Assembly (NCBI GenBank): GCA_965220085.1
Contig: CBDCOZ010000003.1
Coordinates: 1,024,001-1,088,000 of the forward strand
DNA: 64,000 bases
Origin: Candidatus Oxydemutatoraceae bacterium
Lineage (GTDB): Bacteria > Pseudomonadota > Gammaproteobacteria > Poriferisulfidales > Oxydemutatoraceae
Direction of reading: 5' to 3'
Part shown: one piece after another, positions 2,717-32,199 of the stretch
How positions within the stretch are numbered: the stretch's first letter is position 1
Layout of the letters: every line of letters starts with the position of its first letter
Notes under the pieces: model-generated
Databases searched by the model: none
The model's input: only the letters and a program-made list of their open reading frames with translations
Told to the model about the DNA's origin: nothing
Position numbers and translations under genes: made by a program

Positions 2717-3442
2717 GTGAGCAGAACGAACCGGGCATATTGCGAGCAAACTCTGCGCGTCGGCCGCGAGTTTGCGCTAAGCGGAGACGCCCATCACTAT
2801 TTGAGTCGCGTGCTCCGGCTGCGCGGCAAGGACGAGGTGTATTTCTTCAATCACGAAGGACGCGAATTTCTTTGCAAACTGATTGCGGCCGATCGCAAAA
2901 GCAGCGTATTCGCGTGCGAGCGCGAGGTCGATACGCTGGCGGAGGCCGCAATCGCAACCCGGCTCTATCTTGCCGTCTCAAAAAACGAGAGCATGGACTT
3001 TTCATTGCAAAAAGCGACCGAACTGGGCGTGAGCGCGGTACAGCCGTTATTGACCGCGCACAGCAGCCGCGCCGGCGATCGCCTCGGCCATTGGCGCGCG
3101 GTGGCGCGCAGCGCTTGTGAGCAGTGCGGTCGGGCAAAGTTACCCGAGATAAGAGAGCCGATTGCGATTGAGCGGATGGAGAAGGTTCCCGATCGCGTCG
3201 CCGCTTTTGTTTTGGATTTGCAATCCGACGGTGTTCTGGATGCGCAGTCGGAACATTCGCCGATGCCCGATGAAGTGCGTATTGCGGTCGGGCCCGAAGG
3301 CGATTGGCGGGATGACGAGGCGGCGATGCTGAACGAACTCGGTTTCAAATCGGTCTGTCTCGGCGCGCGTGTTTTGCGCTGCGATACGGCGGTTGTCGTT
3401 GCCTTGGGCATCGCGCAACACCAACTCGGCGCGCTGAAATAG
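2717..3442 (+). CDS. rsmE: 16S rRNA m3U1498 methyltransferase
   Basis: HYLSRVLRL, QKATELGV, ACEQCGR, VGPEG and LGARVLRCDTA SPOUT motifs; GTG start. Confidence 0.93.
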   Translation: MSRTNRAYCEQTLRVGREFALSGDAHHYLSRVLRLRGKDEVYFFNHEGREFLCKLIAADRKSSVFACEREVDTLAEAAIATRLYLAVSKNESMDFSLQKATELGVSAVQPLLTAHSSRAGDRLGHWRAVARSACEQCGRAKLPEIREPIAIERMEKVPDRVAAFVLDLQSDGVLDAQSEHSPMPDEVRIAVGPEGDWRDDEAAMLNELGFKSVCLGARVLRCDTAVVVALGIAQHQLGALK

Positions 3443-3704
3443 GGGGTGATATCTGACTCCGCCCGCCCGACAGCGGAGGTCGTTGCAAGTTGCGACTACG
3501 ACGGCACAGTCTGCAACAGCCCGTATCGCCGCGCGTGTTTTACGCTGCGATACGGCGGTTGTCGTTGCCTTGGGCATCGCGCAACACCAACTCGGCGCGC
3601 TGAAATAGGGGATGATATTTGACTCCGCTCGCCCGACAACGGAAGCCGTTGCCAGCCGCGACCGCGACGGCACAGTCTCAAACAGCTTGTCTCGCCGCGC
3701 GTGT
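3365..3704. repeat. Tandem duplication (2 x 166 bp) of the last 26 rsmE codons plus 88 bp of downstream DNA
   Basis: GCGCGTGT at 3365, 3531 and 3697; coding half differs at 1 site, non-coding half at about 16 sites. Confidence 0.95.
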
Positions 3705-3707
3705 CAC

Positions 3708-4940
3708 TCAATAGTTCTCGCTGACATATTTTTCCAGCAAGTCCTTAAAATCTTGCGCCAGCGTATCGCCCGACAAGGTGAGCGTATGTTTTCCATCGAC
3801 ATAGACCGGAGCGACAGGCTTCTCGCTGGTTCCCGGCAGGCTGATACCGATGTTTGCGTGGCGACTCTCTCCCGGGCCGTTGACGACGCATCCCATCACC
3901 GCCACTTTTATATCTTCGACTCCCCGATGATCTTTCTTCCATGCCGGCATTCGTTGACGAATGTAATCGCGCACTTCGGCGGTTAACACGCGGAAATAGT
4001 CGCTGTCGGTGCGACCGCATCCGGGGCAGGCGGTTATCGACGGCGCGAAAGATCGCAGGCCGAGGCTCTGCAAAATTTCTTGCGCAATGAACACCTCCTG
4101 CGTCCTGTCTTGCCCCGGTTCCGGCGTCAGGGATACGCGGATGGTATCGCCTATGCCTTCGTTGAGCAGGATGGCGATTGCGGCGCTCGATGCGACGGTT
4201 CCTTTGAGCCCCATGCCCGCTTCGGTCAGACCGAGGTGCAGCGGGTAATCGCATAAGCGCGCCAGTTTGCGATAGACCCGAATTAATTCTTGCACATCGC
4301 TGAGTTTGCACGATATGACAATCTGATCGTGTGCCAGACCGAGCTCTTCCGCCCGTTGCGCACTGCCGAGGGACGACTCGATCAGCGTTTCCCGGACAAT
4401 CGCCTCCAGCGAACGCGGTTGCTTCTGTTTTGCATTGCTGTCTAATCGCTTCTGTAGCAAGTCCTGATCCAAGCTGCCCCAATTGACGCCGATACGCACC
4501 GGCTTATTGAAACGGCATGCAATTTCAATCAGTTGGGCAAACTGTATGTCGTGTTTTGCCTTGCGCCCGACATTGCCGGGATTGATGCGCAGTTTGGAAA
4601 GCGCCTCGGCACACGCGGGGTTGTTGGCCAACAGCTTGTGTCCGTTGTAATGAAAGTCGCCGACTATCGGAACGGCAATGCCTCGCTGTGCGAGTTGCTC
4701 CGCAATATGCGGGACAGCCCGCGCGGCTTTCTCATTATTGACCGTCAGGCGCACTATTTCGGAACCGGCTTCGGCGAGAGCGGCGGTTTGCGCGACGGTC
4801 GCGCCGATATCCGCGGTATCCGTGCTGGTCATGGACTGCACCGCGACGGGCGTACCGCCGCCGATCGTCAGGCGCCCGATTTTTACCGCGACCGCATGGC
4901 GGCGGATTGGCAGGGATATTTCCGGTGGCATATTGGACAT
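3708..4940 (-). CDS. ispG: HMBPP synthase (GcpE)
   Basis: [56 protein letters not shown]. Confidence 0.97.
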
Positions 4941-4987
4941 AGCACTGATGACATTATAATACGAAGGGTATATCCGTTACGCATTGT

Positions 4988-5395
4988 TTGATGATAATAA
5001 CTACGATTACCCGCCGCACAACCGGCAGGGGGCCACACGAATTAACGCAACAAGTCCGAGACTTGATCCCGCCGGATAGCCAAGGGATTTGCCACCTGTT
5101 TATCCGCCATACCAGCGCTTCGTTAATCATCACCGAGAATGCCGACCCCGATGTGCATAAAGACTTGGAGCGTTTTATGTCTGATCTGGCGCCGGACGGG
5201 GATTCCCGCTTTTGCCATGTCGCAGAAGGCGCCGACGACATGTCGGCGCATATCAGGTCGGTTTTGACGCAAACTTCCTTGGCCATTCCGGTCGCAGGCG
5301 GGCGGTTGCAACTCGGCGTGTGGCAGGGAATCTATTTGTGGGAACATCGGACTTCCCCGCGCGAACGAAAGGTTGTGTTCGGCCTTCTCACATAA
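4988..5395 (+). CDS. yjbQ: YjbQ/UPF0047 family protein
   Basis: HTSASLIITENADPDV, DDMSAHIRS, LGVWQGIYLWEHR; exact start uncertain. Confidence 0.9.
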   Translation: MMIITTITRRTTGRGPHELTQQVRDLIPPDSQGICHLFIRHTSASLIITENADPDVHKDLERFMSDLAPDGDSRFCHVAEGADDMSAHIRSVLTQTSLAIPVAGGRLQLGVWQGIYLWEHRTSPRERKVVFGLLT

Positions 5396-5414
5396 GCCGC
5401 CATACATCGCAAAT

Positions 5415-6497
5415 ATGTCCGACCGAAGAGCACATGTAGATTTCCATGACGTCAGCAAACGCTATGGCAATTCGTGTGTGGTGGACAATCTCTCGTTGCG
5501 CGTCTACGACAGCGAATTCCTGACGATATTGGGGCCGTCCGGATCGGGCAAAACCACATGCCTGATGATGCTGGCCGGTTTTGAGAATGTGAGCTCCGGA
5601 TCCATCGCAATCCATGGCCGACGGGCGAATGATATTCCGCCGCACAAACGGAATATCGGCTTTGTCTTTCAGCACTACGCGCTTTTCCCGCATATGACGG
5701 TGGCGGACAACTTGGCTTTCCCGCTACAGGTGCGCAAGACCGCCCGCGCGACGATAAAAGAGCGTGTCGCCGAGACCTTGGAGATGGTCAAGCTCGGGGA
5801 TTTTGCCAAGCGTTTTCCGGCGCAACTCTCGGGCGGGCAACAACAACGGGTCGCGCTTGCCCGCGCCTTGATATTCCGCCCCGATCTGGTTTTGATGGAT
5901 GAGCCGCTCGGCGCGTTGGATAAGCGGCTCAGAGAGCGGATGCAGTATGAGATGAAGCGCTTGCACGAAGAGCTTCGCTTCACCGCGCTTTATGTCACGC
6001 ACGATCAAAACGAAGCGCTGGTTATGTCGGATCGAATCGCGGTATTTAACGAAGGCAAGATACAACAGATCGATGAGCCGGATGTGCTGTACGAATCCCC
6101 CGCCAACGCTTTTTCCGCCGCTTTCATCGGCGAGAATAATATGCTGAACGGCAGGTTGCTGCGGACATCCGGCGACACATGCGCGGTTGAGTTAGACAAC
6201 GATAATCGCCTGCAAGGCACCCCGGTTAATTTGCCGCCGGGGGCTTCGCAGGTAGCGGCGGCTATCCGGCCCGAGCGGATACTGATAAATCCCGACGATG
6301 GCTGCCGTAATATCTTGTCGGCAAAGGTGCGCCAGTCGGTTTATTTCGGGGACTATATGCGCGTAGTCGTCGCTCTGTCGCAGGAACAGGAACTGGCGAT
6401 TAAGCTTCCCAATGACAGAAGCAAGGGCAATCCGGCAATCGGGCAACGGGTTAAAATAGGCTGGCACCCGGGAGACTGCCGCGTGTTTGCAATCTGA
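5415..6497 (+). CDS. Polyamine-type ABC transporter ATP-binding subunit (PotA-like)
   Basis: Walker [33 protein letters not shown]-terminal TOBE-like region; ATG at 5415 chosen to avoid overlap with yjbQ. Confidence 0.92.
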   Translation: MSDRRAHVDFHDVSKRYGNSCVVDNLSLRVYDSEFLTILGPSGSGKTTCLMMLAGFENVSSGSIAIHGRRANDIPPHKRNIGFVFQHYALFPHMTVADNLAFPLQVRKTARATIKERVAETLEMVKLGDFAKRFPAQLSGGQQQRVALARALIFRPDLVLMDEPLGALDKRLRERMQYEMKRLHEELRFTALYVTHDQNEALVMSDRIAVFNEGKIQQIDEPDVLYESPANAFSAAFIGENNMLNGRLLRTSGDTCAVELDNDNRLQGTPVNLPPGASQVAAAIRPERILINPDDGCRNILSAKVRQSVYFGDYMRVVVALSQEQELAIKLPNDRSKGNPAIGQRVKIGWHPGDCRVFAI

Positions 6498-6527
6498 ATG
6501 TATCATTTAATAATCTGAGTCAAGCCA

Positions 6528-7625
6528 ATGCGCCATAACAACCTCTTTCGCGAAACATCTTTTGTTTCTATGTTCTTAAGCTTATTGCTTTGCGGCGCTC
6601 TTGCCGGAGCCGGCGAAGCGCTGACTGTCACATCGTGGGGCGGCGCGTATTCGCATAGCCAGATCAAGGCTTACCACGAACCGTTCACCGCCAAAACCGG
6701 CATCCGCATCAACGCCGAGGATTACAACGGCGGCCTGGCGGAAGTGCGGGTGCAAGCGCAGTCCGGCAATGTCACCTGGGATGTGGTCGATATGTCTCTG
6801 TCTTCGGTCATCCGCGGGTGCGAAGAAGGGTTGCTCCACGAGTTGGATCTCGCCGCCTTCCCGCCGGCGCCCGACGGCGCGCCGGCCGAGGAAGACTTTT
6901 TGCCCGAGACCCTGGTGTCGGAGTGCGGCGCGCCGCTGATTATCTGGTCGACTATTTTTGCTTATGACAAGAGCAAATTCCCGCAGCGCAAACCGCAGCA
7001 TCTGGAAGATTTCTTTGACTTGGAAAAATTTCCGGGGCGCAGGGCATTGCGCAAGTCGCCGCGCTCCACCCTTGAGTTTGCATTGATGGCAAGCGGCGTC
7101 GCCGCGGCGGACGCATACGCCGTGCTATCGACCCCGCAGGGGCTCAAACGCGCGTTTGCAAAGCTCGACACGATCAAAGAGCATACGGTGTGGTGGGAGG
7201 CCGGCGCGCAGCCGCCGTTATTGTTGTCCGACGGCGAAGTGGCGATGGCGACGGCCTATAACGGCCGCATTTTCAACGCCTACAACAAAGAGAAAAAGCC
7301 GTTTGAAATTGTCTGGGACAGACAAATCTGGTATCGCAACTACTATGCCATCGTCAAAGGCACGCCGCGCTATAAACAGGCTCTGGAATACGTAAAATTT
7401 GCATCAGCCGCCAAACAACTGGCCAATCAGGCGCGGCATATCTCCTATGGGCCGGCGCGGCAATCGTCTATGGCGATGATTGCGACGCATGCCGAAACAG
7501 GAATTGATATGCGACCGCACATGCCGACCGAACACTTTGAAAACGTGTTGGAGAACGATTTTGAATGGTGGGCGGATTACGAAGACGAGATGACCGACCG
7601 CTTTAACACCTGGCTCGCCAAATAG
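6528..7625 (+). CDS. ABC transporter periplasmic substrate-binding protein (PotD/PotF-like)
   Basis: Signal peptide, TSWGGAY, WDVVD, FFDLEKFPGRRAL, YNGR motifs; operon context. Confidence 0.88.
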   Translation: MRHNNLFRETSFVSMFLSLLLCGALAGAGEALTVTSWGGAYSHSQIKAYHEPFTAKTGIRINAEDYNGGLAEVRVQAQSGNVTWDVVDMSLSSVIRGCEEGLLHELDLAAFPPAPDGAPAEEDFLPETLVSECGAPLIIWSTIFAYDKSKFPQRKPQHLEDFFDLEKFPGRRALRKSPRSTLEFALMASGVAAADAYAVLSTPQGLKRAFAKLDTIKEHTVWWEAGAQPPLLLSDGEVAMATAYNGRIFNAYNKEKKPFEIVWDRQIWYRNYYAIVKGTPRYKQALEYVKFASAAKQLANQARHISYGPARQSSMAMIATHAETGIDMRPHMPTEHFENVLENDFEWWADYEDEMTDRFNTWLAK

Positions 7626-7674
7626 GCCCCGCCGCTTGTGACGACGGGAACGATCGGGGCGGCGGCAAAAATCG

Positions 7675-8889
7675 GTGAAGCTGGCTAAATTCATAACAGA
7701 AACCTCAAGCATCCATCACCGGGGCATGGCTGTCGTACTGGTCCTGCCGCTGCTGTTATTCCTCGTATTCACTTATATCGTGCCTTTGGCCGATATTCTG
7801 TTCTATAGCGTAGACAACACGCCGCTGGCAAAACACATGCCGCGCGCCGCCGCCGCTCTGTCCGAGTGGGACGGTCTGGCGCTGCCCGATGATGACATGT
7901 TCAATACTGTCGGCGAAGACTTGGCGCGCGCTTACCGCAACCATTCAATCGGGCAAGTCGCAAACCACATCAACCATAAGCTGAGCGGCATGCGGAGCTT
8001 TTTGATCCGCACGGCGCGTCGTCTGGCAAAGTCGGAAGACACGCCTCATCGCTCCGCAATGATAGCGATCGACGAGCGCTGGGGCAAGCGCGAAACATGG
8101 GCGGCGTTGAAAGACGCCGCGCCGCGGCTGACCGCCGACAACTATTTGACAGCGCTTGATTTGCGCGCCGCCGACGGTGAGATCGTCCGGCAACCGGAAG
8201 ACAAAAGGATTTACCTGAAGATATTCTGGCGCACCTTGTGGGTCAGTTTTGTCGTCACATTAATCTGCCTCTTGCTGGGCTTTCCGGTCGCATATCTGAT
8301 GGCAAGCCTGCCGTTGCGCATCAGCAATTGGCTCATGATTATGGTCCTGTTGCCTTTTTGGACTTCGCTTTTGGTGCGGGCGGTGAGTTGGATCGTATTG
8401 CTGCAATCCAGCGGCGTACTCAACAGCATACTGGTATGGAGCGGTCTGATAGACGACAGCGAGCGGGTGCGGCTCATATTCAACCTCACAGGCACCGTGA
8501 TCGTGATGTCGTACGTCTTGTTGCCGTTTATGGTCTTGCCGCTATACAGCGTGATGAAGACGATTCCAAAGACAGTCGCGCGGGTCGCTATCTCGCTGGG
8601 CGCGCATCCGGTCACAGCGTTTTATCGCGCCTATTTGCCGCAGGCGGCGCCGGGCATCGCCGCCGGCAGTCTGCTGGTATTTATGCTGGCGGCGGGTTAC
8701 TACATCACGCCGGCGCTGGTCGGCGGTCAGAGCGGGCAGTTGATCAGCAACTTCATCGTCTATCACATCAAGACTTCGTTGAATTGGGGGCTCGCCGCCG
8801 CAATCGGAATCATCCTGCTTCTGGTCGTGCTGCTCGCATACAGAATCTACAATAAAGTTGCGGGTGTCGGCAAAGTGAAAATGATATGA
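7675..8889 (+). CDS. ABC transporter permease (PotB-like)
   Basis: Multiple TM segments, LLPFWTSLLVR, SLGA loop, GYYITPALVGG. Confidence 0.9.
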   Translation: MKLAKFITETSSIHHRGMAVVLVLPLLLFLVFTYIVPLADILFYSVDNTPLAKHMPRAAAALSEWDGLALPDDDMFNTVGEDLARAYRNHSIGQVANHINHKLSGMRSFLIRTARRLAKSEDTPHRSAMIAIDERWGKRETWAALKDAAPRLTADNYLTALDLRAADGEIVRQPEDKRIYLKIFWRTLWVSFVVTLICLLLGFPVAYLMASLPLRISNWLMIMVLLPFWTSLLVRAVSWIVLLQSSGVLNSILVWSGLIDDSERVRLIFNLTGTVIVMSYVLLPFMVLPLYSVMKTIPKTVARVAISLGAHPVTAFYRAYLPQAAPGIAAGSLLVFMLAAGYYITPALVGGQSGQLISNFIVYHIKTSLNWGLAAAIGIILLLVVLLAYRIYNKVAGVGKVKMI

Positions 8890-9722: not shown

Positions 9723-9735
9723 AGCGGCGAAACCG

Positions 9736-9809
9736 CGCTCCCGACAGGAGTCGAACCTGTGACATCCTTCTTAGGAGGAAGGCGCTCTATCCGGCTGAGC
9801 TACGGGAGC
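9736..9809 (-). tRNA. tRNA-Arg (anticodon CCT), CCA not encoded
   Basis: Reverse complement GCTCCCG-TAGCTCAGCCGGATAGAGC-G-CCTTC-CTCCTAA-GAAGG-ATGTC-ACAGG-TTCGACT-CCTGT-CGGGAGC-G folds as a cloverleaf. Confidence 0.95.
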
Positions 9810-9856
9810 CATGCGGTTATTCCGTAATGATACCCGATTGCGGAAAATAAGGGCGA

Positions 9857-10231: not shown

Positions 10232-10297
10232 TTGGGCAATTCAATAATTGTAAAAATTCTTTGAGGCGATAGATTGTAACCCGATTCAAGCAATAAT

Positions 10298-14439: not shown

Positions 14440-16873
<2,434 letters not shown>

Positions 16874-16884
16874 GGCGATAGCGG

Positions 16885-17751
16885 CTAGGATGCGCCGCCT
16901 ATCCGTCTTTGCATTTTCGCCGCCAGTATGGTGTTTCTTATCAGGCAAGCGACAGTCATCGGCCCGGTTCCGCCCGGCATCGGCGTGATCGCTCCGGCGA
17001 CTTTCGCGACCTCATCAAACAGCACATCGCCGTATATCTTGTCCCCCTTGCGCGTGATACCGACGTCAAAAACAGCGGCTCCGGGTTTGACATATTCGGC
17101 TGTCACAAGTTCGGGCATACCGCAGGCGGCGACGAGAATATCGGCGCGCCGGCAGACGTGAGGCAGTTGCTTCGTAGCCGAATGGCAGATCGTGACAGTG
17201 CAATCCGTTCCCTTGCGCCCCAGCAGCAGCGCCAGCGGAAGGCCGACCAAGTGCGAGCGCCCGATGACCGTCGCATTGCGCCCCTCGGTCGGTATGTCAT
17301 AGCGCTTGATCAGCTCCATCACCCCAAGCGGCGTGCAGGGCGACAAGCCGCCGCTATTGTTCAGCAAGCGTCCGAGGTTGTCGGCGCCAAGCCCGTCGAC
17401 ATCTTTGAGCGGCGGGATCAGATCAAGTATCGGCGCGACCTCAAGGTGTTTCGGCAACGGCAGTTGCAGCAAGATACCGTGCACGGTGTCATCGCGCGCC
17501 AGTTGCCGGATGGCATTTTCAACCGCATCTTGCGGCGCATCGTCGGGCAGTTCTATCAGGCGCGGTATCAGCCCTGTCTGCGCCGCCATTTTCAGTTTCA
17601 GGCCGATATAGACCCGGCTGGGAGGATAGTCGCCGACCAGAACAGTCGCCAGCGTTATCTCGCTATTGCCGCTGCGAGCGATATCGCTTGCTAATTCCGC
17701 GATGATCTTCTCTGCCGTACGTTTGCCGTCGAGCAGAATCGCCTCTTGCAT
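16885..17751 (-). CDS. folD: Bifunctional methylene-THF dehydrogenase/methenyl-THF cyclohydrolase
   Basis: HGILLQLPLP, KDVDG, PCTP, GRSHLVG, TPMPGGTGPMTV. Confidence 0.96.
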   Translation of the reverse strand: MQEAILLDGKRTAEKIIAELASDIARSGNSEITLATVLVGDYPPSRVYIGLKLKMAAQTGLIPRLIELPDDAPQDAVENAIRQLARDDTVHGILLQLPLPKHLEVAPILDLIPPLKDVDGLGADNLGRLLNNSGGLSPCTPLGVMELIKRYDIPTEGRNATVIGRSHLVGLPLALLLGRKGTDCTVTICHSATKQLPHVCRRADILVAACGMPELVTAEYVKPGAAVFDVGITRKGDKIYGDVLFDEVAKVAGAITPMPGGTGPMTVACLIRNTILAAKMQRRIGGAS

Positions 17752-17757
17752 CGTCCG

Positions 17758-18687
17758 CTATTCGCTTGCCGGTTGCTTGTCGGGATGCAGGTAGATAAAG
17801 CTCTTGCCGAGCCGCCCGCCGTAATTGCCGGCTGATATCATCAGCAGGTCGGGCGTGTCTTTTGCCGCATGGATAGCCGCCTGCGTGGCTTCAATGATGC
17901 AATCTATGCCATGCCCGTTCATGATGATTTCCATCACCGAGCCGACCCCCTCGGGCAACCCTTTTTCAACGCTCGGATCATCCTGCAACATCGGGCAGAA
18001 CTTTTCATAGGTGCTGGCAATGGAGAATTCATATTTGCTGCCGGCCTTTGAGCCGCTGCTGGCGATTCCGCCGGGAAAGGCGCAGATGACGCCGGCGACC
18101 GGCGCGATCGCGTCGACGCCTTTTTCCGCGGCGGCCAACGCGGATGTGGCATCCTTGCCAAAGAACCACAGGTTGCCCCCCATCAGCCCTTCGCGATAAC
18201 CGAGGCGCCGCTCCATCACGAACTCGCCGCCCAAAGTCGGTATCTGCCACATTTTGCGCCCATACCGCTCTATGCGCTTCTGATAACCGTTGCCGAAATA
18301 GGCGACCTTGCGCCCCATCTGATAATACGTATCCGAATCTGCCGCATTGAAGCACGAGGCGGTAGGGCAGGTCAGAATGTTCTGACTGATGCGCACCAGA
18401 GCCACCCGTTCCAGTTTGGGCACACGGTCTTTCCAGAATCTCGGCACATGGAATTGAACCAGCGCGCCCGGGCGTCCGTCCGGAGTGGTCACGCTGGCAT
18501 CGCCGCCGGGGCCGACATAGCGATCCAAGCCCGCTTCGCAGTCGCACAGAATCGTGCTGGACGCATTGCCGGCGCACGCATGAATCGCATGGTCAAGCCA
18601 CTTCCTGTTGTCGGCGGTAATCAGAACCTCGGTGTAGAGGCTCTTAAAAGCTTCGGCATAAGTATCGTCTATGATCGCCGCCATCAA
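17758..18687 (-). CDS. ftr: Formylmethanofuran-tetrahydromethanopterin N-formyltransferase family protein (Ftr/FhcD-like)
   Basis: DTYAEAF, CDCEAG, TPDGRPG, QNILTCPT, FGNGYQ, GGNL, FPGG..SGSK, EIIMNG, ISAGNYGGRLG match the recalled Ftr motif order. Confidence 0.9.
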   Translation of the reverse strand: MMAAIIDDTYAEAFKSLYTEVLITADNRKWLDHAIHACAGNASSTILCDCEAGLDRYVGPGGDASVTTPDGRPGALVQFHVPRFWKDRVPKLERVALVRISQNILTCPTASCFNAADSDTYYQMGRKVAYFGNGYQKRIERYGRKMWQIPTLGGEFVMERRLGYREGLMGGNLWFFGKDATSALAAAEKGVDAIAPVAGVICAFPGGIASSGSKAGSKYEFSIASTYEKFCPMLQDDPSVEKGLPEGVGSVMEIIMNGHGIDCIIEATQAAIHAAKDTPDLLMISAGNYGGRLGKSFIYLHPDKQPASE

Positions 18688-21163: not shown

Positions 21164-21179
21164 GGGGATGTATTTTACA

Positions 21180-22340
21180 TTATCGGTCAAAAGCGAGTCT
21201 GACGCCGGCGAATATATGCCGTTTTTCGCGCGTGTGAAAATTCCTAAAACTAATCCTGCGGCACTCCGCCTCGCTGAAGCGGCTGGCCCCGCGCAAAGCA
21301 TAGTGCTTGTCGTCAAAAGCGGGGATGGAATATTCGGGATAAGGGAAAGGGCGGAAGTCGGGGTAGGGGTGGAAGGTGTTGTCGCACCACTCCCAAACAC
21401 AGTGCATTTTCTCAAGTTGCCCCGTATGCGCCGCTATTTCCCACTCGTATTCGTGCGGCAGGCGCGCGTTCGCATAGGCGGCAAACGCGCGCGCCTCGTA
21501 ATGGCTTATGCCGTGCACCGGCTCATCGGGCGCCAACGGGCGGCTGCCGTCGCAATGCGTTTGATGCCAACTCCCCCGCGCATCGCAAAACCACCCGTCG
21601 GGGGCGCTCACCTTGGCGGCGGCCAGCCAGCGGCGGCCGTTGCGGTCCCAATGCTCCGTGTTCCGATAGCCGCCGGCGCGGATGAAGGCGAGGTACTGCG
21701 CGTTGGTCACCGGCGTCCGGTTGATCGCAAACGCCTTCGGCGCCACCTCCTGTTGCGGCAACTCATTGTCAAAAGACCAATTATCGTTGCCGCCGACACG
21801 GGTCTGTTGGTGGTTGCCAAAGCAAACCGGCGCGTGTGTGATCGCAGCGGCCTGTGTCAGCCCCTTGCCGGCGCGGCCGCCGCCCTTGCGCGCAAACATC
21901 TGCGTCTTGATCATGCGCATCGTTTCAATGTGTTGCGCGTGATGCTGAATCAGGAACTTGAGCAAATAGTCCTGTCGCATCAACTCGTGCCGCAACAGTT
22001 TTGACGGCGCGGCTTTGAACAAAGCGATATTGTCTTGTTGCTTTTTGCGAATCTGTCGCAGCGCGTCATTCTTCGGCGGCAACTGTCCGCCGCGCTCGGA
22101 GTGCGGGCAATTTTCCGGAATGTACAGCCCCGACAGCGCCGTATCCGCCGGTTGCGCCTCCAGCACGCGCTCGCGCAACCACAGATTCTCTACGAACAAA
22201 GTGTGTCCGACATGCCAGCCGAGCGGACTCAAATGGTCGTGATAGCGATTGCGATACTCATCGTCGCTGACCCCCCGCAGCATGCCGATGAGCGTCGCAT
22301 GGATGGCGCCCAAGCGCGCGGTCAGCCGGTCGCGGTTCAT
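21180..22340 (-). CDS. egtB: EgtB-type sulfoxide synthase (DinB-like plus formylglycine-generating-enzyme-like domains)
   Basis: SPLGWHVGH, HHAQHIE metal motif, FDNELP, PVTNAQY, RLPHEYEWE, VWEW, FRNF; coupled to egtC. Confidence 0.8.
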   Translation of the reverse strand: MNRDRLTARLGAIHATLIGMLRGVSDDEYRNRYHDHLSPLGWHVGHTLFVENLWLRERVLEAQPADTALSGLYIPENCPHSERGGQLPPKNDALRQIRKKQQDNIALFKAAPSKLLRHELMRQDYLLKFLIQHHAQHIETMRMIKTQMFARKGGGRAGKGLTQAAAITHAPVCFGNHQQTRVGGNDNWSFDNELPQQEVAPKAFAINRTPVTNAQYLAFIRAGGYRNTEHWDRNGRRWLAAAKVSAPDGWFCDARGSWHQTHCDGSRPLAPDEPVHGISHYEARAFAAYANARLPHEYEWEIAAHTGQLEKMHCVWEWCDNTFHPYPDFRPFPYPEYSIPAFDDKHYALRGASRFSEAECRRISFRNFHTREKRHIFAGVRLAFDR

Positions 22341-23101: not shown

Positions 23102-23210
23102 GGTTTGGCAAATCTGCGGAGTATGGAGTATGGGGAGTATGAAAAGAGTTATACCCGACTCGGAAGTGTGAGAACCGACTCCCGCGCAAGGGAGCGCCGG
23201 TCAGCGGATG

Positions 23211-24824: not shown

Positions 24825-24844
24825 GCATGCACGATTAGTGCCCT

Positions 24845-25080
24845 ACTATACCATAAAACGCGCGTCATCCGCTCATGTCTTTGTATCTTGCCGCATCCCT
24901 TGTGCGCACAGCACACGAACCCAATCGCCTTGGACCGCTCATGCCTTTGTATCCTGCCGCATCCCTTGTGCCTCCCCCTGACATTCCCTTCTCCCTGCGG
25001 GATATTCGCAATCGCCGTTTTACAACAGTTTCCGCTGTCGGGCGGACGAGTCGCATACGCAAGCCCCTATTCCGATTATG
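24845..25080 (-). promoter_or_regulatory. Conserved leader element upstream of the LEGPLR gene, ending in candidate extended -10 TGgTATAGT
   Basis: Shares GGGAATGTC.GGG...ACAAGG.AT...GGATAC with 28475-28645, 43021-43135 and 58671-58785; internal 37-bp direct repeat at 24869 and 24935. Confidence 0.6.
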
Positions 25081-25090
25081 CTTGATGGCT

Positions 25091-26013
25091 GCTTGATACC
25101 ATGACATGTCGGACACCCAGAGCAATATTGCGAGCCTCACGACCGCTTGAAGCTGTGACATGTCGGACACCCAGAGCAATATTGCGAGCCTCACGACCGC
25201 TTGAAGCTGTGACATGTCGGACACCTAGAGCAATGTTGTGTGCCTCACGACCACTTGAAGCCACGACACATCGGACACCTAGAGCAATGTTGTGTGCCTC
25301 ACGACCGCTTGAAGCCACGACACATCGGACACCTAGAGCAGTATCGTGTGCCTCATGGTTGCATGAAGCCACGACACATCGGACACCCAGAGCAACATTG
25401 TGCGCCTCACGTCCGCTTGAAGTCACGACATGCCGGACACCTAGAGCAATATCGTGTGCCTCACGGTTGCTTGAAGCCACGACACATCGGACACCTAGAG
25501 CAATATTGCGAGCCTCACGGACGCTTGAAGCTGTGACATGTCAGACACCCAGAGCAACATTGTGCGCCTCACGTCCGCTTGAAGTCACGACATGCCGGAC
25601 ACCTAGAGCAAACATTGTGTGCCTCACGGTTGCTTGAAGCCACGACACATCGGACACCCAGAGCAACATTGTGCGCCTCACGACCACTTGAAGCCGCGAC
25701 ACATCGGACACCCAGAGCAAACATGTGCCTCATGGCCGCTTGAAGCCACGACACATCGGACACCTAGAACAATACCGTGTGCCTCACGGCTGCTTGATGC
25801 CACGACACATCGGACACCTAGAGCAGTATCGTGTGCCTCATGGTTGCATGAAGCCACGACACATCGGATACCTAGAGCAAACATGTGCCTCACGACTGCT
25901 TGAAGCCACGACACATCGGACACCCAGAGCAAATGCTGTATGCCTCACGACCACTTGATGCCACGACACATCGGACACCTAGAGCAAACATGTGCCTCAC
26001 GGCTACTTGATGC
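25091..26013. repeat. Minisatellite, about 17 copies of a 52-55 bp (mostly 54 bp) unit
   Basis: Core TTGAAGCCACGACACATCGGACACCYAGAGCA recurs at 25111, 25165, 25219 and onward to 25973. Confidence 0.95.
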
Positions 26014-26283
26014 TTCGGTTCGCAGTGTGCTCCCTTCGTGGTGGTGTCAAACCATAACAGAATTCATGACAACTCGTGTTGATGTCGGCAAACCAAAATG
26101 TTTCCGGCATCATTCAGAAAAAATCACGCCGTGAATCGGCGCTATTAGACCGTTCGTCAGGCAATCAATGCCGCCTGTCTATGGGTTGATCGCGGTCGCC
26201 GAATGAGCGCTATTATCCGGCACGAAGGTTATTGACCATAACCTCTTAATTAGTATTATTATTACAACCCGGAGGGAATAATC

Positions 26284-27084
26284 ATGAAGAAACCAAAAAA
26301 TTTAAAAGCGGAAGATGCGGCGGTTGCTGCTTATGGCTCCGTCGAGAACTTGACCGACGCAGGCTTTGACAAGGAGAAAGCGCGCGCGATTGCCAGCGAT
26401 CTATCCGCACTGTTGCGCAGACACCTGAGCGCTCTGGCAACGAAAAGCGAATTTGCCGAGTTTGAATCAGCGATTAGAGAAAAAATTGCCGAGTTTGAAT
26501 CGGCGATTAGAGAAAAAATTGCCGAGTCTGAATCAGAGATTGGAGAAAAGTTTGCCGAGTTTAAATCAGAGATTGTAGAAAGACTTGCCGAGTTTGAATC
26601 AGCAATCAGAGAGGAACTTGCCCAGCATAGGTCGGAAATCAAAAAAGAAACAGATGAGTTGAAAGCAACAGTAACTAAGTTGCAAGTAACAGTAGCTGAG
26701 TTGAAAGTAATGATAGCCGAGTCCGGGGCAAAAACCCAAAAACAAATAGATGAGTTGAGAGTGCTGATAGCCGAGTCTGGGGCAAAAACACAAAAACAAA
26801 TAGATGAGTCCGGGGCAAAAACCCAAAAACAAATAGATGAGTTGAGAGTGCTGATAGCCGAGTCTGGGGCAAAAACACAAAAACAAATAGATGAGTTGAG
26901 AGTACTGATAGCCGAGTCCGGGGCAAAAACCCAAAAACAAATAGATGAGTCCGGGGCAAAAACACAAAAACAAATAGATGAGTTGAGAGTAATGATATCT
27001 GAGCACACAGCAAAAATCACAACTCTGTTCGTGATAGTCTCCCTTGGGTTAGCGGCTCTTGTTATTGCGGCGCTAACTATATAG
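26284..27084 (+). CDS. DUF1640/CCDC90-like membrane-anchored coiled-coil protein with internal repeats
   Basis: Head L..AGF..EKARAI, LATK neck, repeats AEFESAIREKI and AESGAKTQKQIDELRVLI, C-terminal TM helix; GGAGG RBS; AT-richer than its neighbours. Confidence 0.75.
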   Translation: MKKPKNLKAEDAAVAAYGSVENLTDAGFDKEKARAIASDLSALLRRHLSALATKSEFAEFESAIREKIAEFESAIREKIAESESEIGEKFAEFKSEIVERLAEFESAIREELAQHRSEIKKETDELKATVTKLQVTVAELKVMIAESGAKTQKQIDELRVLIAESGAKTQKQIDESGAKTQKQIDELRVLIAESGAKTQKQIDELRVLIAESGAKTQKQIDESGAKTQKQIDELRVMISEHTAKITTLFVIVSLGLAALVIAALTI

Positions 27085-27221
27085 TCTCCCTTGGGTTAGC
27101 GGCTCTTGTTATTGCGGCGCTAACTATATAGTCTCCCTTGGGTTAGCGGCTCTTGTTATTGCGGCGCTAACTATATAGTCTCCCTTGGGTTAGCGGCTCT
27201 TGTTATTGCGATGCTATCTAT
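27034..27221. repeat. Tandem array (4 x 47 bp) of the 3' end of the coiled-coil gene
   Basis: ATAGTCTCCCTTGGGTTAGCGGCTC at 27034, 27081, 27128 and 27175. Confidence 0.96.
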
Positions 27222-27355
27222 ATTTATTGCACTCTCCGCTTAGGCCTGTGCCGTATCTTGTTCGCGCCGACAGAGAGGGGGCATGTTTCACAGACAGCGC
27301 TCCCTCTCCGGCGTAGCGCAACTGCGCCGACTCTCCCTCGCGGGGAGCGCTCGCG

Positions 27356-27397
27356 CTATCGCAACGGGCATTCAAGGAAGAGGCGCAGCCGCAACTG
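27356..27397 (-). pseudogene. Orphan decayed tail of a LEGPLR-family gene (QLRLRLFLECPLR*)
   Basis: Reverse complement cag ttg cgg ctg cgc ctc ttc ctt gaa tgc ccg ttg cga tag, followed by CGCGAGCGC.CCCCGCG as after 43020 and 58670. Confidence 0.85.
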
Positions 27398-27408
27398 TGC
27401 GGCGGATT

Positions 27409-28314
27409 TCAAGGTCTGCGTTCCCCGTCCATCCACGACAGATCCCGGGATATGACAAGTTCGGTCATGGTTGCGTGGCGGGTGTTTTTCATCGCCACGG
27501 GTCGGGATTCAAAGCCGTATTTGTCGACCAGTTGCCGCACCTCATCGGCATTGTTGTAGGTCATCACGAAGTCGCCGGGCAATTCGGCGCAGAGCGCGAA
27601 CAGCCTGTCATGGTCCAAGCTGTGGTGCGTATACAGGCGGCTACCGGCGTTTTTGCCGCCGACGGTGTATGGCGGGTCTGTGAAGAATGCCGCATCGCCA
27701 TCGCCCATATGGCGGCGGATGCAGGCCATGGCATCGCCATGCTCAAAGCGCAGGCAATGGCGCGCGCGGTCTATGGCGCACAGCCTTTTGGCCAGAGTCT
27801 GCGGATACCATCCGGACATCAGCCCTCTGCCGCCTTCGCCGGTTTTTATCAGCCCGGAGCCACCGGCCAATATGCCGCCGCGCAGGGTGCGATTGCGCAC
27901 TATGGTCTGGAAGGCGCGTTCCCTGACGGAGCCGGGTTGTGCGGATATGACTGCGGTGACCGCATCTCTGGACATCTCAAATGACAGTATGCGCCGGGCC
28001 AGCCATTCGGCATCGCCCGCCATCAGCGTCTGCCAGACCGCCGCTACCGCATCGTCCAGCTCCACCATCAGGGCGCGCCCGGTCAGGCCCTCAAACACCG
28101 CTGTCAGCGAGATGATGCCGCCCCCGGCAAAAGGTTCCACCAGCAATGCCGGCCGCGCCCGACGACCGCCCAGCCATTGCCGCAAGCGCGGCACAAACCA
28201 GGTCTTGCCGCCCGCATAGCGAAAGGGGCTGCGATGCGGCACAGATGCCACATTCACAGGATTGGCAGATACGGAATCCGCATGCGCACCGGCAAAAAGG
28301 GCGACTTGTTGCAT
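27409..28314 (-). CDS. D12-class (Dam-family) N6-adenine DNA methyltransferase
   Basis: SPFRYAGGKTW, EPFAGGG (motif I), DPPY (motif IV), ELVI. Confidence 0.92.
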   Translation of the reverse strand: MQQVALFAGAHADSVSANPVNVASVPHRSPFRYAGGKTWFVPRLRQWLGGRRARPALLVEPFAGGGIISLTAVFEGLTGRALMVELDDAVAAVWQTLMAGDAEWLARRILSFEMSRDAVTAVISAQPGSVRERAFQTIVRNRTLRGGILAGGSGLIKTGEGGRGLMSGWYPQTLAKRLCAIDRARHCLRFEHGDAMACIRRHMGDGDAAFFTDPPYTVGGKNAGSRLYTHHSLDHDRLFALCAELPGDFVMTYNNADEVRQLVDKYGFESRPVAMKNTRHATMTELVISRDLSWMDGERRP

Positions 28315-28316
28315 AG

Positions 28317-28478
28317 TTAATTGCCTCCCAGAGGGGAATCCATGCGCTTGTTCACAGGTTCGGCTTCCAACTTCTCGTCCGCTTTGGCTTGCAAGGTATC
28401 AACAAACACATCCATTTTGCCCACTTTTGGCCGGGTTATGCCACGCAGAGCGGCATCAAATTTTGTATACAGAATCAT
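28317..28478 (-). pseudogene. Probable C-terminal remnant of the cognate restriction endonuclease (recalled resemblance to NotI-family C-termini)
   Basis: 53-aa frame YTKFDAAL..IT.P..G.M..F...LQ.K.DE.LE stops 2 bp before the MTase start; the family call is from memory and unverified. Confidence 0.4.
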
Positions 28479-28645
28479 AAAGCGCGAGCCATCCGCAATG
28501 TCTTGGGTATCCGGTCTCGCCCCTGTATCCCTTGTATGCCCCCCGACATTCCCTTTCCGCCGGCGGGACATTCGCAATCGCCGTTTTACAACGGTTTCCG
28601 TTGTCGGCGGGCGGGGCGCGTACGCATGCCCCTCTTCCGATTATG
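28475..28645 (-). repeat. Second copy of the leader element
   Basis: GACATTCCCTT...TTCGCAATCGCCGTTTTACAAC.GTTTCCG.TGTCGG...GCCCCT.TTCCGATTATG is shared with about 24950-25080. Confidence 0.85.
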
Positions 28646-28705
28646 TATCCGCGACCCTATCATGCTAATATAGAGGGCATATCATCCGACAGAAACCCTT
28701 CTCTC

Positions 28706-29710
28706 ATGACAGACAGCACTCAGCCGTCGCTTCATACGTTGCAGAATATCGATGCGGAAGCTTGCGCGCCTTCTTTGCGCGACGATGTGTTGCAAGGGCT
28801 TTTCGCCGATCAAAAAACGTTGCCGTCAAAATACTTCTATGACGAGAAGGGTATGCGGATATTCGCGCGGATTTGTCAGTCGGACGAATACTATCTGACC
28901 CGCGCCGAGAACCGAATGTTGAAGGAGAAGGCCGCGGCGATCATCGCTTCCGCACAACCTCAGAATATCATTGAGTTGGGCAGCGGCTCATCGGACAAGA
29001 TACGCTTTTTTCTGGACGCTTGCGGTCGGCGCAACATACGCTGCAAGTATTGGCCGTTGGATGTGTGTTCGGAAGCGCTGGCGACGATGACCGGCATCTT
29101 GGCGGCGGAGTACCCGTGGTTGCGTATCAACGCTTTGGTCGGAGATTACGGCAATGGCTTGGAGGCCGTCGGCCTGCCGCAAAACGAGCGCAATCTGGCG
29201 CTGTTTATGGGCAGTACGATCGGCAATCTGACCCATCCTCAGGCGGTTTCCTTTTTGCGCCGGATTCGGCTCTTGGTCGGCGCGCAAGGGCGGTTGTTGG
29301 TCGGCATGGATCGGGTGAAAGATGTCGCGACGCTGACCGCCGCGTATAACGACGCGCAGGGTTTGACCGCGCAATTCAACATGAACATTCTTGAAGTGCT
29401 GAATGGTCGCATGGGGGCGAACTTTGAAGCGGACAAGTTTGAGCACCGCGCGGTGTATAACGAATCGCAAAGCCGGATAGAGATGCACCTTGTTTCAAAG
29501 GAAGAGCAGAGCGTGTATTTTGAAAGTTTGGACAAGCGCCTCGCTCTGCGGCGGGACGAAACGATTCGCACCGAGATCAGTCGCAAATTTTGCGATGACG
29601 AAATTGAATCGTTGCTGAGCGAAAGCGGATTTGCGTTTGAGCGACACTATGTGTCCGATAACGGTTATTTTTCTTTGGCGCTGGCCAAGAATGCGGGGGA
29701 GGAGGCTTGA
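28706..29710 (+). CDS. egtD: L-histidine N-alpha-trimethyltransferase
   Basis: KTLPSKYFYDEKG, EYYLTRAE, ELGSG, GSTIGN, AYNDAQG, RIEMHL, TEISRKF. Confidence 0.95.
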   Translation: MTDSTQPSLHTLQNIDAEACAPSLRDDVLQGLFADQKTLPSKYFYDEKGMRIFARICQSDEYYLTRAENRMLKEKAAAIIASAQPQNIIELGSGSSDKIRFFLDACGRRNIRCKYWPLDVCSEALATMTGILAAEYPWLRINALVGDYGNGLEAVGLPQNERNLALFMGSTIGNLTHPQAVSFLRRIRLLVGAQGRLLVGMDRVKDVATLTAAYNDAQGLTAQFNMNILEVLNGRMGANFEADKFEHRAVYNESQSRIEMHLVSKEEQSVYFESLDKRLALRRDETIRTEISRKFCDDEIESLLSESGFAFERHYVSDNGYFSLALAKNAGEEA

Positions 29711-29711
29711 G

Positions 29712-30410
29712 ATGGCCGAAGTGCTTGTCGTCGATGATGATCCGTCCATATGCGATATGCTTTGCTTCTTGTTGGGCAGCGAAGGGTATCGGGTGCGCAA
29801 GGCGTATGACGCTCGCGAGGCGTTGCGGCGCGTCGGAGAAAAGGTTCCGGATCTCGTGCTGGTCGATTGGATGATGCCCGGCATGAACGGGGTTGAGTTG
29901 ATTCGCTGTTTGCGCTCCGAGCCGACCACACGGCGGTTGCCGATCATCATGCTCACCGCCAAAGACAGCGAGAGCGACAAAGTCGAAGGGCTGGTCGTCG
30001 GCGCCGATGACTATATCCTGAAGCCGTTTTCCAATCGCGAACTGTGCGCGCGTGTCAAAGCCCTTTTGCGCCGCGCCAAGCCGCACAAGACGCAAGAGAA
30101 AGTCGTCTGCAAAGACATGACCCTGGACCCGCAGTTGCATAGCGTCAATATCAACGGGGAGGATATTGTCATCCCGGCGACAGAGTTTCGTTTGTTGCAC
30201 TTCTTGACCGCCCACGAAGGCCTGGTATTTTCCCGCCGCCAGTTGTTGGACGGCGTTTGGGGCACGGAGAGATTTGTCGAGGATCGCACGGTCGATGTGC
30301 AGGTCGGCAGGTTGCGCAAAACATTGGCGCAGAACGGCAAGCGGCATATCGCCCAAAAGGTTCGGACTATCAGGGGCATCGGTTACAGTTATCGCGGCGA
30401 TGGCGCTTGA
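29712..30410 (+). CDS. phoB: Phosphate regulon response regulator
   Basis: DWMMPG, PIIMLTAK, GADDYILKPFS, RTVDVQVGRLRK, TIRGIGY; next to phoR and pst. Confidence 0.9.
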   Translation: MAEVLVVDDDPSICDMLCFLLGSEGYRVRKAYDAREALRRVGEKVPDLVLVDWMMPGMNGVELIRCLRSEPTTRRLPIIMLTAKDSESDKVEGLVVGADDYILKPFSNRELCARVKALLRRAKPHKTQEKVVCKDMTLDPQLHSVNINGEDIVIPATEFRLLHFLTAHEGLVFSRRQLLDGVWGTERFVEDRTVDVQVGRLRKTLAQNGKRHIAQKVRTIRGIGYSYRGDGA

Positions 30411-30460
30411 AGCAACGATGCCTCTTGCCAATCGGCTATGATGTTTGCCACCGCTTTGTT

Positions 30461-31564
30461 ATGAAAATTCTCTCGCATTTGCGGCAGCGGTTTGCATTGC
30501 CGTCGGAAGATGTTCCCGCCTCCGGCGGGCGGGATGCGGCGGCGCTTGATCGCGAGCTGTTATTGGTTGCCGGTCTTGAATCGGCGGGCGACGGTTGCGG
30601 CCTGATTCTGGTCAAAGACAAGGGCAACATCGTCTGGTTTAATGAGCCGAGTCGCCGCTGGTTTGCTTTGTCCCGGGCGCGGGATATAGGCGAGAACATT
30701 ACCCATCTGATTCGCAACCCGACATTCTTGGAACGCTTTAAGCAAGGAAACTTTGGCGAGATGATGATATTCAGAGAGATTAACCCCGGTCTGAGCGCGG
30801 GCATCAGCATCTTGCCGTGGAGCGCCGATTACCGGTTGATCATCGTCCATGATTTTTCTCAGCGGCAGAGGCTTGAGGACTCCGGTCGCGAGATCATGGC
30901 GAATCTGTCGCACGAGTTGCGTTCTCCGTTGACGGTGATCAAGGGCTATCTCGATACCCTGAGTACGATCTATGACAGCGGCAAAGACAAGGATATTTCC
31001 GCCGCGCTCCGCAACATGCTCAAGCAGTGCGTGCGGATGCAGCAGTTGGTCGAGGATACCTTGTTGCTCGGACGCTTGGAAACGAGCGAGGTGCGCGCGG
31101 ATGAACTTGAGACGGTGGACATTCCGCTGCTTGTCGACGGCCTGACCGGCGACTTGCAAGAAGTGTGGCCGGGGCGGGAGATTGAGATCAGCGGCGAGAG
31201 GCATAGCATGAATTGCATCCGCGCCGACATATACAGCGTGCTGAGCAATCTGCTGAGCAACGCGCTCAACTATTCTGGCGCCGACAGCACGGTGCGATTG
31301 GAGTGGCACACACGGGACGACGGTTTTTATTTTGCTGTGACGGATCGGGGAATCGGGATTGAGGCGACACATATCCCGTACCTGAGCGAGAGGTTTTACC
31401 GCGTGGACAAAGCGCGGTCAAACGCTACCGGCGGCGTCGGTCTGGGCTTGGCAATCGTCGCCCGCACCCTCGACCGTTACGGCGCTCGGCTCAGAATCGA
31501 CAGCGAATACGGCGTCGGCAGCACCTTCTCGTGCATCTTTCCGCGCGAGCATATCGTCCGCTGA
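30461..31564 (+). CDS. phoR: Phosphate regulon sensor kinase (no obvious TM segment)
   Basis: PAS-like IVWFN..HLIRNPTF, SHELRSPLTVIKGY, NLLSNA, ERFYRVDKARS, GLGLAIV; alternative TTG start at 30407. Confidence 0.88.
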   Translation: MKILSHLRQRFALPSEDVPASGGRDAAALDRELLLVAGLESAGDGCGLILVKDKGNIVWFNEPSRRWFALSRARDIGENITHLIRNPTFLERFKQGNFGEMMIFREINPGLSAGISILPWSADYRLIIVHDFSQRQRLEDSGREIMANLSHELRSPLTVIKGYLDTLSTIYDSGKDKDISAALRNMLKQCVRMQQLVEDTLLLGRLETSEVRADELETVDIPLLVDGLTGDLQEVWPGREIEISGERHSMNCIRADIYSVLSNLLSNALNYSGADSTVRLEWHTRDDGFYFAVTDRGIGIEATHIPYLSERFYRVDKARSNATGGVGLGLAIVARTLDRYGARLRIDSEYGVGSTFSCIFPREHIVR

Positions 31565-32199
31565 CGGCGCATAGAATCGCCGGCGGCGTCGGTTTGCGCT
31601 TGGCAATCGTCGCCCGCACCCTCGACCGCTACGGCGCTCGGCTCAGAATCGACAGCGAATACGGCGTCGGCAGCACCTTCTCGCGCATCTTTCCGCGCGA
31701 GCATATCGTCCGCTGACGGCGCATAGAATCGCCGGCGGCGTCGGTTTGGGCTTGGCAATCGTCGCCCGCACCCTCGACCGTTACGGCGCTCGGCTCAGAA
31801 TCGACAGCGAATACGGCGTCGGCAGCGCCTTCTCGCGCATCTTTCCGCGCGAGCATATCGTCCGCTGACGGCGCATAGAATCGCCGGCGGCGTCGGTCTG
31901 GGCTTGGCAATCGTCGCCCGAACCCTCGACCGCTACGGCGCTCGGCTCAGAATTGACAGCGAATACGGCGTCGGCAGCGCCTTCTCGCGCATCTTTCCGC
32001 GCGAGCATATCGTCCGCTGACGGCGCATAGAATCGCCGGCGGCGTCGGTCTGGGCTTGGCAATCGTCGCCCGAACCCTCGACCGTTACGGCGCTCGGCTC
32101 AGAATCGACAGCGAATACGGCGTCGGCAACACCTTCTCGCGCATCTTTCCGCGCGAGCATATCGTCCGCTGACGGCGCATAGAATCGCCGGCGGCGTCG
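31428..32199. repeat. Tandem array (5 x 152 bp) of the phoR 3' end including its stop codon
   Basis: CCGGCGGCGTCG at 31428, 31580, 31732, 31884, 32036 and a terminal copy at 32188. Confidence 0.97.

Follow-up and report, generated by a model that had tools for sequence, protein, structure and literature searches.

Why should the ends of unrelated housekeeping genes be copied in tandem beyond their own stop codons, and what becomes of copies that are not translated? This question is raised by a stretch of 64,000 nucleotides from a Candidatus Oxydemutatoraceae bacterium (positions 1,024,001 to 1,088,000 of contig CBDCOZ010000003.1, assembly GCA_965220085.1; hereafter the window), in which tandem arrays mark the 3′ ends of an rsmE-type RNA methyltransferase gene, the DNA ligase gene ligA, a DUF1640/CCDC90-like gene and a phoR-type histidine kinase gene. 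The gene symbols used here (rsmE, ispG, ligA, folD, phoR, pstB) follow our own reading of Pfam families, which we take to identify these genes.

Tandem Repeats Finder (TRF) recovered all four arrays with the units and copy numbers given in an initial annotation of the window (166 bp × 2.1, 99 bp × 5.0, 47 bp × 4.0 and 152 bp × 5.1). As described there, they occupied four of the six convergent gene junctions; no array was detected by TRF at the other two, potC/tRNA-Arg and mdh/DUF1249. The annotated count of variable coding sites in the rsmE, ligA and phoR copies was also reproduced, with 9 of 16 sites synonymous, seven missense and no indel (4 of 7 variable sites were synonymous in ligA, where the copies are mosaic, and 4 of 8 variable coding sites in phoR). 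Within each of the four arrays the copies were of equal length and differed by substitutions only. The units of rsmE, ligA and phoR consisted of the gene end with its stop plus a portion of the old spacer, so that the repetition of terminal codons and stop held for these three genes. It did not hold for the DUF1640-like gene, whose stop was not part of the ancestral unit.

Placement of the arrays across the genome

The window belongs to a genome of 2.49 Mb (3 contigs, 99% complete; hereafter G000), which is the only member of its genus. The same study includes Hi-C data from an organism with a large genome, which suggests a host-associated sample. Genes were called with our own dicodon model (1779 genes), which agreed with Pfam-supported open reading frames (ORFs) over most of the window. 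We found 324 merged tandem arrays with a period of at least 25, of which 93 lay inside genes and 231 did not lie inside a called gene; the period was divisible by 3 in all 93 intragenic arrays, which is partly so by construction. Junction arrays were defined by a period of 40–500, an identity of at least 85% and at least 20 nt of captured gene end, between neighbouring genes of at least 300 nt.

Arrays of this kind numbered 84: the 209 convergent junctions carried 45, the 1171 co-directional ones 38 and the 206 divergent ones a single array. They captured 119 gene ends (96 3′ and 23 5′ ends) and add 35.8 kb, or 1.4%, to G000. These counts support a general process acting across the genome, as had been proposed from the window, with a strong enrichment at convergent 3′ ends (odds ratio 8.2, p = 7e-18) that persists when gap lengths are matched (odds ratio 7). 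The genome-wide convergent rate was 21.5%, so the window with its four of six is rich in arrays (binomial P about 0.02, by hand calculation). The supposed restriction to convergent junctions has to be given up, however, in view of the 38 co-directional cases. The same applies to the idea that the affected gene is always a plus-strand, leading-strand gene. GC skew indicates that the plus strand is the leading strand in the window, yet over the 45 convergent arrays of the genome the longer captured tail was leading in 22 and lagging in 23. Co-directional arrays showed no replichore bias either (24 of 810 leading, 14 of 361 lagging junctions). This absence of bias argues against head-on fork collision, one of the causes suggested initially.

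The excess at convergent junctions was also seen at gaps of 31–400 nt, where 16 of 72 convergent and 17 of 437 co-directional junctions carried arrays. Among the co-directional arrays that hold both gene ends, 11 of the 15 that could be evaluated were in phase (P about 0.002, by hand calculation), such that the copied start was fused in frame to the copied tail and the resulting mini-ORF stopped at the old stop. Conversely, the periods of convergent arrays showed no phase bias (16/17/12) and no readthrough phase. The phase of the co-directional arrays is direct evidence for a selective filter. Overall, the placement of the arrays fits short-homology duplication filtered by selection, and such a filter may not be the whole explanation.

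Untranslated copies share the purifying signature of the translated copy

Copies in G000 were compared by gapped alignment for 116 tails (3 of the 119 were dropped) with 300 silent copies, after masking of mismatch clusters and gap edges; intervals for the ratio of nonsynonymous to synonymous substitution rates (dN/dS) are bootstraps over tails. Variants confined to silent copies gave a dN/dS of 0.51 (0.38–0.69), from 125 missense and 120 synonymous differences, and contained no stops against 8.5 expected. The ratio was 0.55 (0.38–0.85) for convergent arrays alone, 0.43 (0.32–0.59) with strata matched by trinucleotide (mutation type and neighbours) and 0.37 (0.26–0.56) in two-copy arrays, with frame-shifted controls at 1.61 and 1.38. 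The 300 silent copies contained 14 indels. An unmasked first pass had given 0.48–0.58 with 3 stops.

The signature was replicated in a second lineage set of 61 tails from four relatives (G009, G004, G013 and G012). There the silent-only dN/dS was 0.55 (0.40–0.75), two-copy arrays gave 0.29 (0.18–0.50) and 3 stops were found against 16.8 expected; indels, mostly of 1 nt, were commoner (86). Expressed tails compared between the sister species G009 and G004 gave 0.38–0.43, so that the silent copies stand at the level of expressed tails. Furthermore, in the pooled data dN/dS was nearly the same for variants found solely in the expressed (0.53), in internal (0.56) or in distal copies (0.52). These results imply that the untranslated copies do not decay neutrally but carry the same purifying signature as the translated copy. 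A shift of the missense variants in BLOSUM score was not significant (p = 0.06 and 0.13).

We compared these values with a toy simulation of a single lineage under alternative regimes: copies that never exchange, slippage, conversion, and fresh copies made from the expressed one. In it, 10% or 40% of missense changes were tolerated, and it contains no population-level purge. The simulated dN/dS was 0.79–0.95 for silent-only variants and 0.55–0.82 for two-copy arrays. Gene conversion within the lineage, which the initial annotation had put forward, thus did not reproduce the low ratios. The observed silent-copy values lie at the level of expressed tails, and alleles from other strains, where they had been expressed, would be the simplest source of such variants. 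Alleles of silent copies matched the sister species more often than by chance (26 vs 11 synonymous, 17 vs 6 missense), and polarisation with an outgroup placed ancestral states on both the expressed and the silent side. Among the candidates raised initially, uptake of allelic DNA appears to fit these sequence comparisons best.

The purifying signature also bears on function. The suggestion that the arrays are alternative C-termini serving as a switch is at odds with the housekeeping nature of the genes, with variation that is purifying rather than diversifying, and with the capture of 5′ ends. Antigenic-variation cassettes of the vls or pil type were likewise rejected, because dN/dS is about 0.5, stops are depleted and the tails are those of ligA, rsmE, phoR and mutS.

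Origin of the arrays and competing explanations

Every unit duplicates the gene ends that flank it. For microhomology and a crude density count 63 of the 84 arrays were entered, and microhomology was scored on the 59 clean ones (residual of at most 40 nt). Terminal microhomology reached at least 3 nt in 25 of these 59 arrays (chance 6%) and at least 8 nt in 16 (chance 0.2%); in 34 it was 2 nt or less. In the window, it measured 9–13 nt in the rsmE array and 12 nt in the phoR array and was not clear in the ligA array, with ancestral gaps of 99 nt to ispG, 29 nt to pstB and 18 nt to folD, respectively. Four-gamete violations occurred in 11 of 27 testable tails, i.e. the copies are mosaic, and divergence between copies was about 3%.

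Among ten relatives sampled over 200 kb each, junction arrays numbered 12 in G009, 6 in G004, 2 in G012 and 1 in G003, and none were found in the samples of G001, G002, G005, G006, G015 and G019; two matched samples of G000 held 8 and 5. Larger samples located arrays at 8 of 39 convergent, 21 of 261 co-directional and 2 of 39 divergent junctions in G009, at 7 of 36, 3 of 225 and 0 of 39 in G004, and at 0 of 10, 6 of 46 and 1 of 10 in G013. G009 and G004 (89% amino-acid identity) had none of 12 array-bearing orthologous junctions in common, and two other sister-species pairs had none of 9 and none of 4. Because no array-bearing junction was shared between sister species, the arrays must have arisen recently, each within its own lineage and from a junction that was ancestrally single. 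The backbone of a ligA tree was unresolved, with no supported clade uniting G000 and a second array-bearing genus.

The competence genes comEC and dprA were present in 19 of 19 and 18 of 19 genomes of the family, and both are intact in G000. Exonuclease I was found in none of 19, and the Pol III chi subunit (holC) in none of 13, family genomes searched. Loss of a repair gene as the cause was rejected: mutS, mutL, xseA, recA, AddAB/RecB-type nucleases, recG, dnaQ, ruvC, recF, rho, rnhA and mfd-like and uvrD-like genes all occur in G000. Both recJ and recQ are missing from G000 and patchy by genus, and neither tracks the arrays. The gene rarA was present in G000 and in 5 of 5 and 3 of 3 genomes of two other array-bearing genera, and in 0 of 4, 0 of 5 and 0 of 1 genomes of three genera without arrays; one rarA-positive genus has few arrays. 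Both rarA and chi occur in the sister family, of which one genome was sampled and showed no arrays. We treat the association of rarA with arrays as a lead only. RarA has been proposed to mediate RecA-independent template switching (PMC12448304).

We give a probability of about 0.5 to one joint explanation, in which duplication, a selective filter and alleles fed by competence act together. In outline, the data show a lineage that makes head-to-tail duplications of 50–330 bp at many sites, often at short microhomologies, and amplifies them by misaligned exchange between copies. As the placement statistics show, duplications persist where both neighbours stay whole and expression is undisturbed; arrays therefore lie mostly at convergent junctions, less often at co-directional ones, where the phase usually lets ribosomes pass on to the true start, and almost never at promoters. 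The purifying signature that untranslated and translated copies share would then be explained if copies differ mainly by alleles that other strains had expressed and that reached the array through out-of-register recombination between a unit and DNA acquired by competence. A candidate engine is RarA-type short-homology recombination in a background without Pol III chi and exonuclease I, and the arrays would be a by-product rather than a switch. More tentatively, in several lineages of the family competence and RarA-type recombination might add incoming alleles beside the resident end without replacing it. The arrays would then be in-place allele stacks, through which a genome records population diversity at about 100 loci and is inflated against deletion bias.

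Several observations weigh against the joint explanation. The competence genes comEC and dprA also occur in relatives free of arrays, and rarA is the only tracking gene of about 17 tried over six genera. Strain diversity was not seen: long read-derived contigs match the array flanks, and the listed pieces from a second sample match, with 0 differences. Convergent junctions are 7-fold enriched over co-directional ones of equal gap length, and tight array-bearing junctions have stronger hairpins (p = 0.01) and neighbours with more typical codon usage (p = 0.002), the last two being confounded; a pure filter requires none of these features. The distal copy is no cleaner than the internal ones, contrary to a form of import in which the flank is refreshed. 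Against four-fold sites alone the silent-copy ratio rises to 0.58 (0.40–0.85) or 0.67 (0.47–1.02), and variants polarised as derived only in silent copies give 0.61–0.72, with intervals up to 1.2–1.3 in a small sample. A crude ungapped count found equal rates at 0-fold and 4-fold sites, but it was misaligned by indels (15% divergence at a separation of 4 units) and is superseded by the gapped alignment.

These intervals, which reach 1 or beyond, are compatible with plain slippage with survivorship, in which harmless duplications survive and decay passively and the low dN/dS reflects changes in the expressed copy and bias of the analysis. It accounts for orientation and phase and for the slightly greater similarity of adjacent than of distant copies (2.7% vs 3.7% difference; 38 vs 19 tails), and tandem 101-bp repeats rearrange in Escherichia coli by RecA-independent template switching (PMC8378479). 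We nevertheless consider it unlikely, since silent-only ratios near 0.5 and a near absence of stops recur in two lineage sets, whereas the simulated models of slippage, conversion and copying from the expressed copy all gave at least 0.79 for silent-only variants. The main rival to imported alleles as the source of the purifying signature is purging by intermittent exposure: within a single lineage, collapse and conversion would cycle silent copies through the expressed position, second-order selection would remove harmful variants, and the arrays may be kept as spacers between facing transcripts. Copies that are mosaic and exchangeable in dN/dS agree with such cycling, as does the strongest depletion falling on stops, the most harmful class. 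Yet exchange fast enough to purge missense changes should homogenise the copies, and neighbouring copies differ at 5–6% of synonymous sites. Moreover, dN/dS shows no gradient of exposure along the unit (0.44 near the breakpoint, 0.58 far from it), and tight gaps were not significantly favoured over gaps of 31–400 nt (p = 0.21, with gaps above 400 nt set aside), so that we regard cycling as improbable.

The 7-fold excess at matched gap length, the hairpins and the codon usage would suit a mutational hotspot, in which replication forks or facing transcription, by way of supercoiling, colliding polymerases, hairpins or R-loops, set off duplications specifically at convergent ends. The breakpoint lay within a tenth of a unit from the junction in 10 of 30 tight convergent arrays against 6 expected (p = 0.06). 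As the sole cause a hotspot is distinctly improbable, given the lack of a leading/lagging bias, no shared breakpoint motif evident by eye in 63 junctions, intact rho, rnhA, mfd-like and uvrD-like genes, and a dN/dS that it leaves unexplained; it may add to the selective filter but not replace it. An assembly artefact, in which alleles of mixed strains are concatenated as tandem copies, would yield a dN/dS like that of expressed alleles, and was named initially as the result that would overturn the arrays. Assemblers, however, are blind to gene orientation and reading phase. Independent read-derived contigs, which possibly stem from the source sample itself and drop rare variants, show 0 differences from the flanking sequence along stretches of 2.5, 6.4 and 3.0 kb and break at array edges, ending at 16472 and restarting at 16844 for ligA and ending at 31457, 30 nt into copy 1, for phoR. 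Furthermore, six single-contig relatives had no arrays per 200 kb where others had 1–12, all of which makes an artefact highly improbable.

Known systems and features of the window

In the small genome of Ehrlichia ruminantium, many tandem repeats reportedly overlap gene ends. Its non-coding tandem repeats, which expand and contract (PMC10710844), are the closest known case: like G000, this host-associated bacterium has a small genome with low coding density and many locus-specific non-coding repeats, and G000 shares that trait with 324 arrays, 231 of them outside called genes and 84 capturing a gene end. The units of G000 differ in that they span junctions and replicate the ends of housekeeping genes, are distributed according to orientation and phase, and show purifying change in the silent copies. 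In Portiera, much shorter repeats proliferate after loss of repair genes (PMC3673631). Microhomology and template-switch duplications of E. coli resemble G000 in units near 100–300 bp, short microhomology at many ends and RecA-independent exchange, possibly mediated by RarA as we propose here, but such repeats are unstable and frequently deleted, whereas the G000 arrays persist to about 3% divergence at tens per genome (PMC8378479, PMC12448304).

The mycobacterial interspersed repetitive units (MIRU) couple a small ORF to the next start (PMC12548453), as do the co-directional arrays in phase, the only subset of G000 with this property. However, MIRU are one dispersed, apparently mobile family, whereas G000 units are unrelated local copies, mostly convergent, and form no single dispersed homologous family. 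Competence generates tandem duplications by out-of-register pairing in merodiploids of Streptococcus pneumoniae (PMC3784515), much as suggested here, and competence genes are present in our family; those duplications span 100–900 kb and need dispersed repeats, in contrast to units of 50–330 bp in G000, where a role of competence would be a matter of inference. The vlsE/vls cassettes of Borrelia likewise place one expressed copy beside silent, mosaic partial copies (PMC11499132), but the genes of G000 are cytoplasmic and housekeeping, their change is purifying, and there is one array per gene with no dedicated locus.

In the literature we found nothing on selection in silent copies of gene tails or on such arrays in Oxydemutatoraceae. 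Four points are new here: silent copies carry a purifying signature that was replicated, arrays are lineage-specific when sister species are compared, models confined to a single lineage fail, and rarA is a lead. The proliferation of intergenic tandem repeats in the small genomes of host-associated bacteria is a known but unexplained phenomenon. For its study the present family offers a natural experiment: closely related genera either have or lack arrays, orthologous junctions carry arrays in one lineage and not in another, and selection can be measured in DNA that is not translated. Should the silent copies prove to be imported alleles, the mixing of strains and the diversity of a population could be read from one uncultured genome, and genomes would have a real route of growth in the additive integration of short homologous sequences. 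If they are not, the arrays would still read out the tolerance of junctions to insertion (convergent more than in-phase co-directional, promoters almost never).

Table 1. Array-bearing genes of the window, their arrays and their convergent partners (positions within the window).
Feature	Coordinates	Strand	Basis and remarks
rsmE-type RNA methyltransferase gene	2717..3442	+	Pfam; final 83 nt fall in repeat unit 1
rsmE array, 166-bp unit × 2.1	3360..3704	+	TRF; unit = rsmE tail + stop + 83 nt spacer
ispG/gcpE, convergent partner of rsmE	3708..4940	-	Pfam; stop 3 nt past array edge
ligA, NAD-dependent DNA ligase	14464..16470	+	Pfam; final 92 nt (BRCT domain end) in unit 1
ligA array, 99-bp unit × 5.0	16379..16873	+	TRF; unit = ligA tail + stop + 7 nt
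folD, convergent partner of ligA	16885..17751	-	Pfam; array ends 11 nt short of folD stop
DUF1640/CCDC90-like coiled-coil gene, member of a multicopy family	26284..27084	+	weak Pfam match
DUF1640-like array, 47-bp unit × 4.0	27034..27223	+	TRF; out-of-frame duplication within last codons of gene
D12-class adenine methyltransferase-like gene, convergent partner of DUF1640-like gene	27409..28314	-	Pfam
phoR-type histidine kinase gene	30461..31564	+	Pfam; final 137 nt in unit 1
phoR array, 152-bp unit × 5.1	31428..32199	+	TRF; unit = phoR tail + stop + 15 nt
pstB-type ABC ATPase, convergent partner of phoR	32202..33014	-	Pfam; stop 2 nt past array edge

The DUF1640/CCDC90-like call has a Pfam E value of 4e-6, below the cut-off. 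The junction of its array creates a TAG at 27082–27084, so that the gene ends six residues early relative to the old stop at 27241–27243; the longer C-terminal end is seen in single-copy paralogs. The 47-bp array also occurs, in three copies, in a paralog that lies at a co-directional junction (G000 C3:1318324–1318466). This was the only unit found common to two loci, both paralogs of one gene family. The gene itself contains in-frame repeats of 33, 54 and 87 bp (26453–26997). Upstream of it, a wholly intergenic 54-bp unit is repeated 17 times (83% alike; 25091–26001), and a related unit sits near the paralog at C3:1.317 Mb. Two further intergenic arrays of the window, at 43128–43533 (62 bp × 6.5) and 58899–59136 (72 bp × 3.3, with about 21 consecutive C after it near 59197), lie directly upstream of giant ORFs, one of about 4960 aa that starts at 43794 and one of 4188 aa that starts at 59299 and continues past the window end; their units do not occur elsewhere in G000.

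Outside the window, the 3′ end of mutS is amplified eight times with a 147-bp unit at a convergent junction (G000 C3:1208323–1209495), and mutS is intact. The ligA tail has been amplified independently in G013 (290 bp × 4, L213:3366–4521), and a diverged ligA tail copy occurs in G009 (C1:79288–79677); both are unrelated to the 99-bp unit. In the sister family f2 (G019, G022, G024, G026, G028 and G030), the ligA match is split in two inside a single open frame of 881–1031 aa by a large in-frame insertion, possibly an intein. The 3.0-Mb genome of G009, which appears colinear with the 1.9-Mb genome of G004, contains incomplete second copies of the end of recG and the start of dnaQ, as well as five clustered DprA-like domains (C1:2075368–2075712, 1633007–1633519 and 1445910–1456528, respectively).

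Differences between G000 copies were 76% transitions, and T-to-C differences were commonest after G (0.076 vs 0.012–0.033 per missense site). Gene-body dN/dS between G009 and G004 orthologs was high, about 0.33, which suggests weak selection in these symbiont-like genomes. Among the neighbouring genes of the window, a formylmethanofuran-tetrahydromethanopterin formyltransferase gene (17758–18684, by Pfam) lies between folD and a 5-formyltetrahydrofolate cyclo-ligase gene. The insert with the DUF1640-like and methyltransferase genes is flanked by genes with DinB_2 and sulfatase-modifying domains (21180–22340) and a histidine methyltransferase domain (28706–29710), assigned by Pfam. We take these two to be EgtB-like and EgtD-like, presumably for ergothioneine synthesis.

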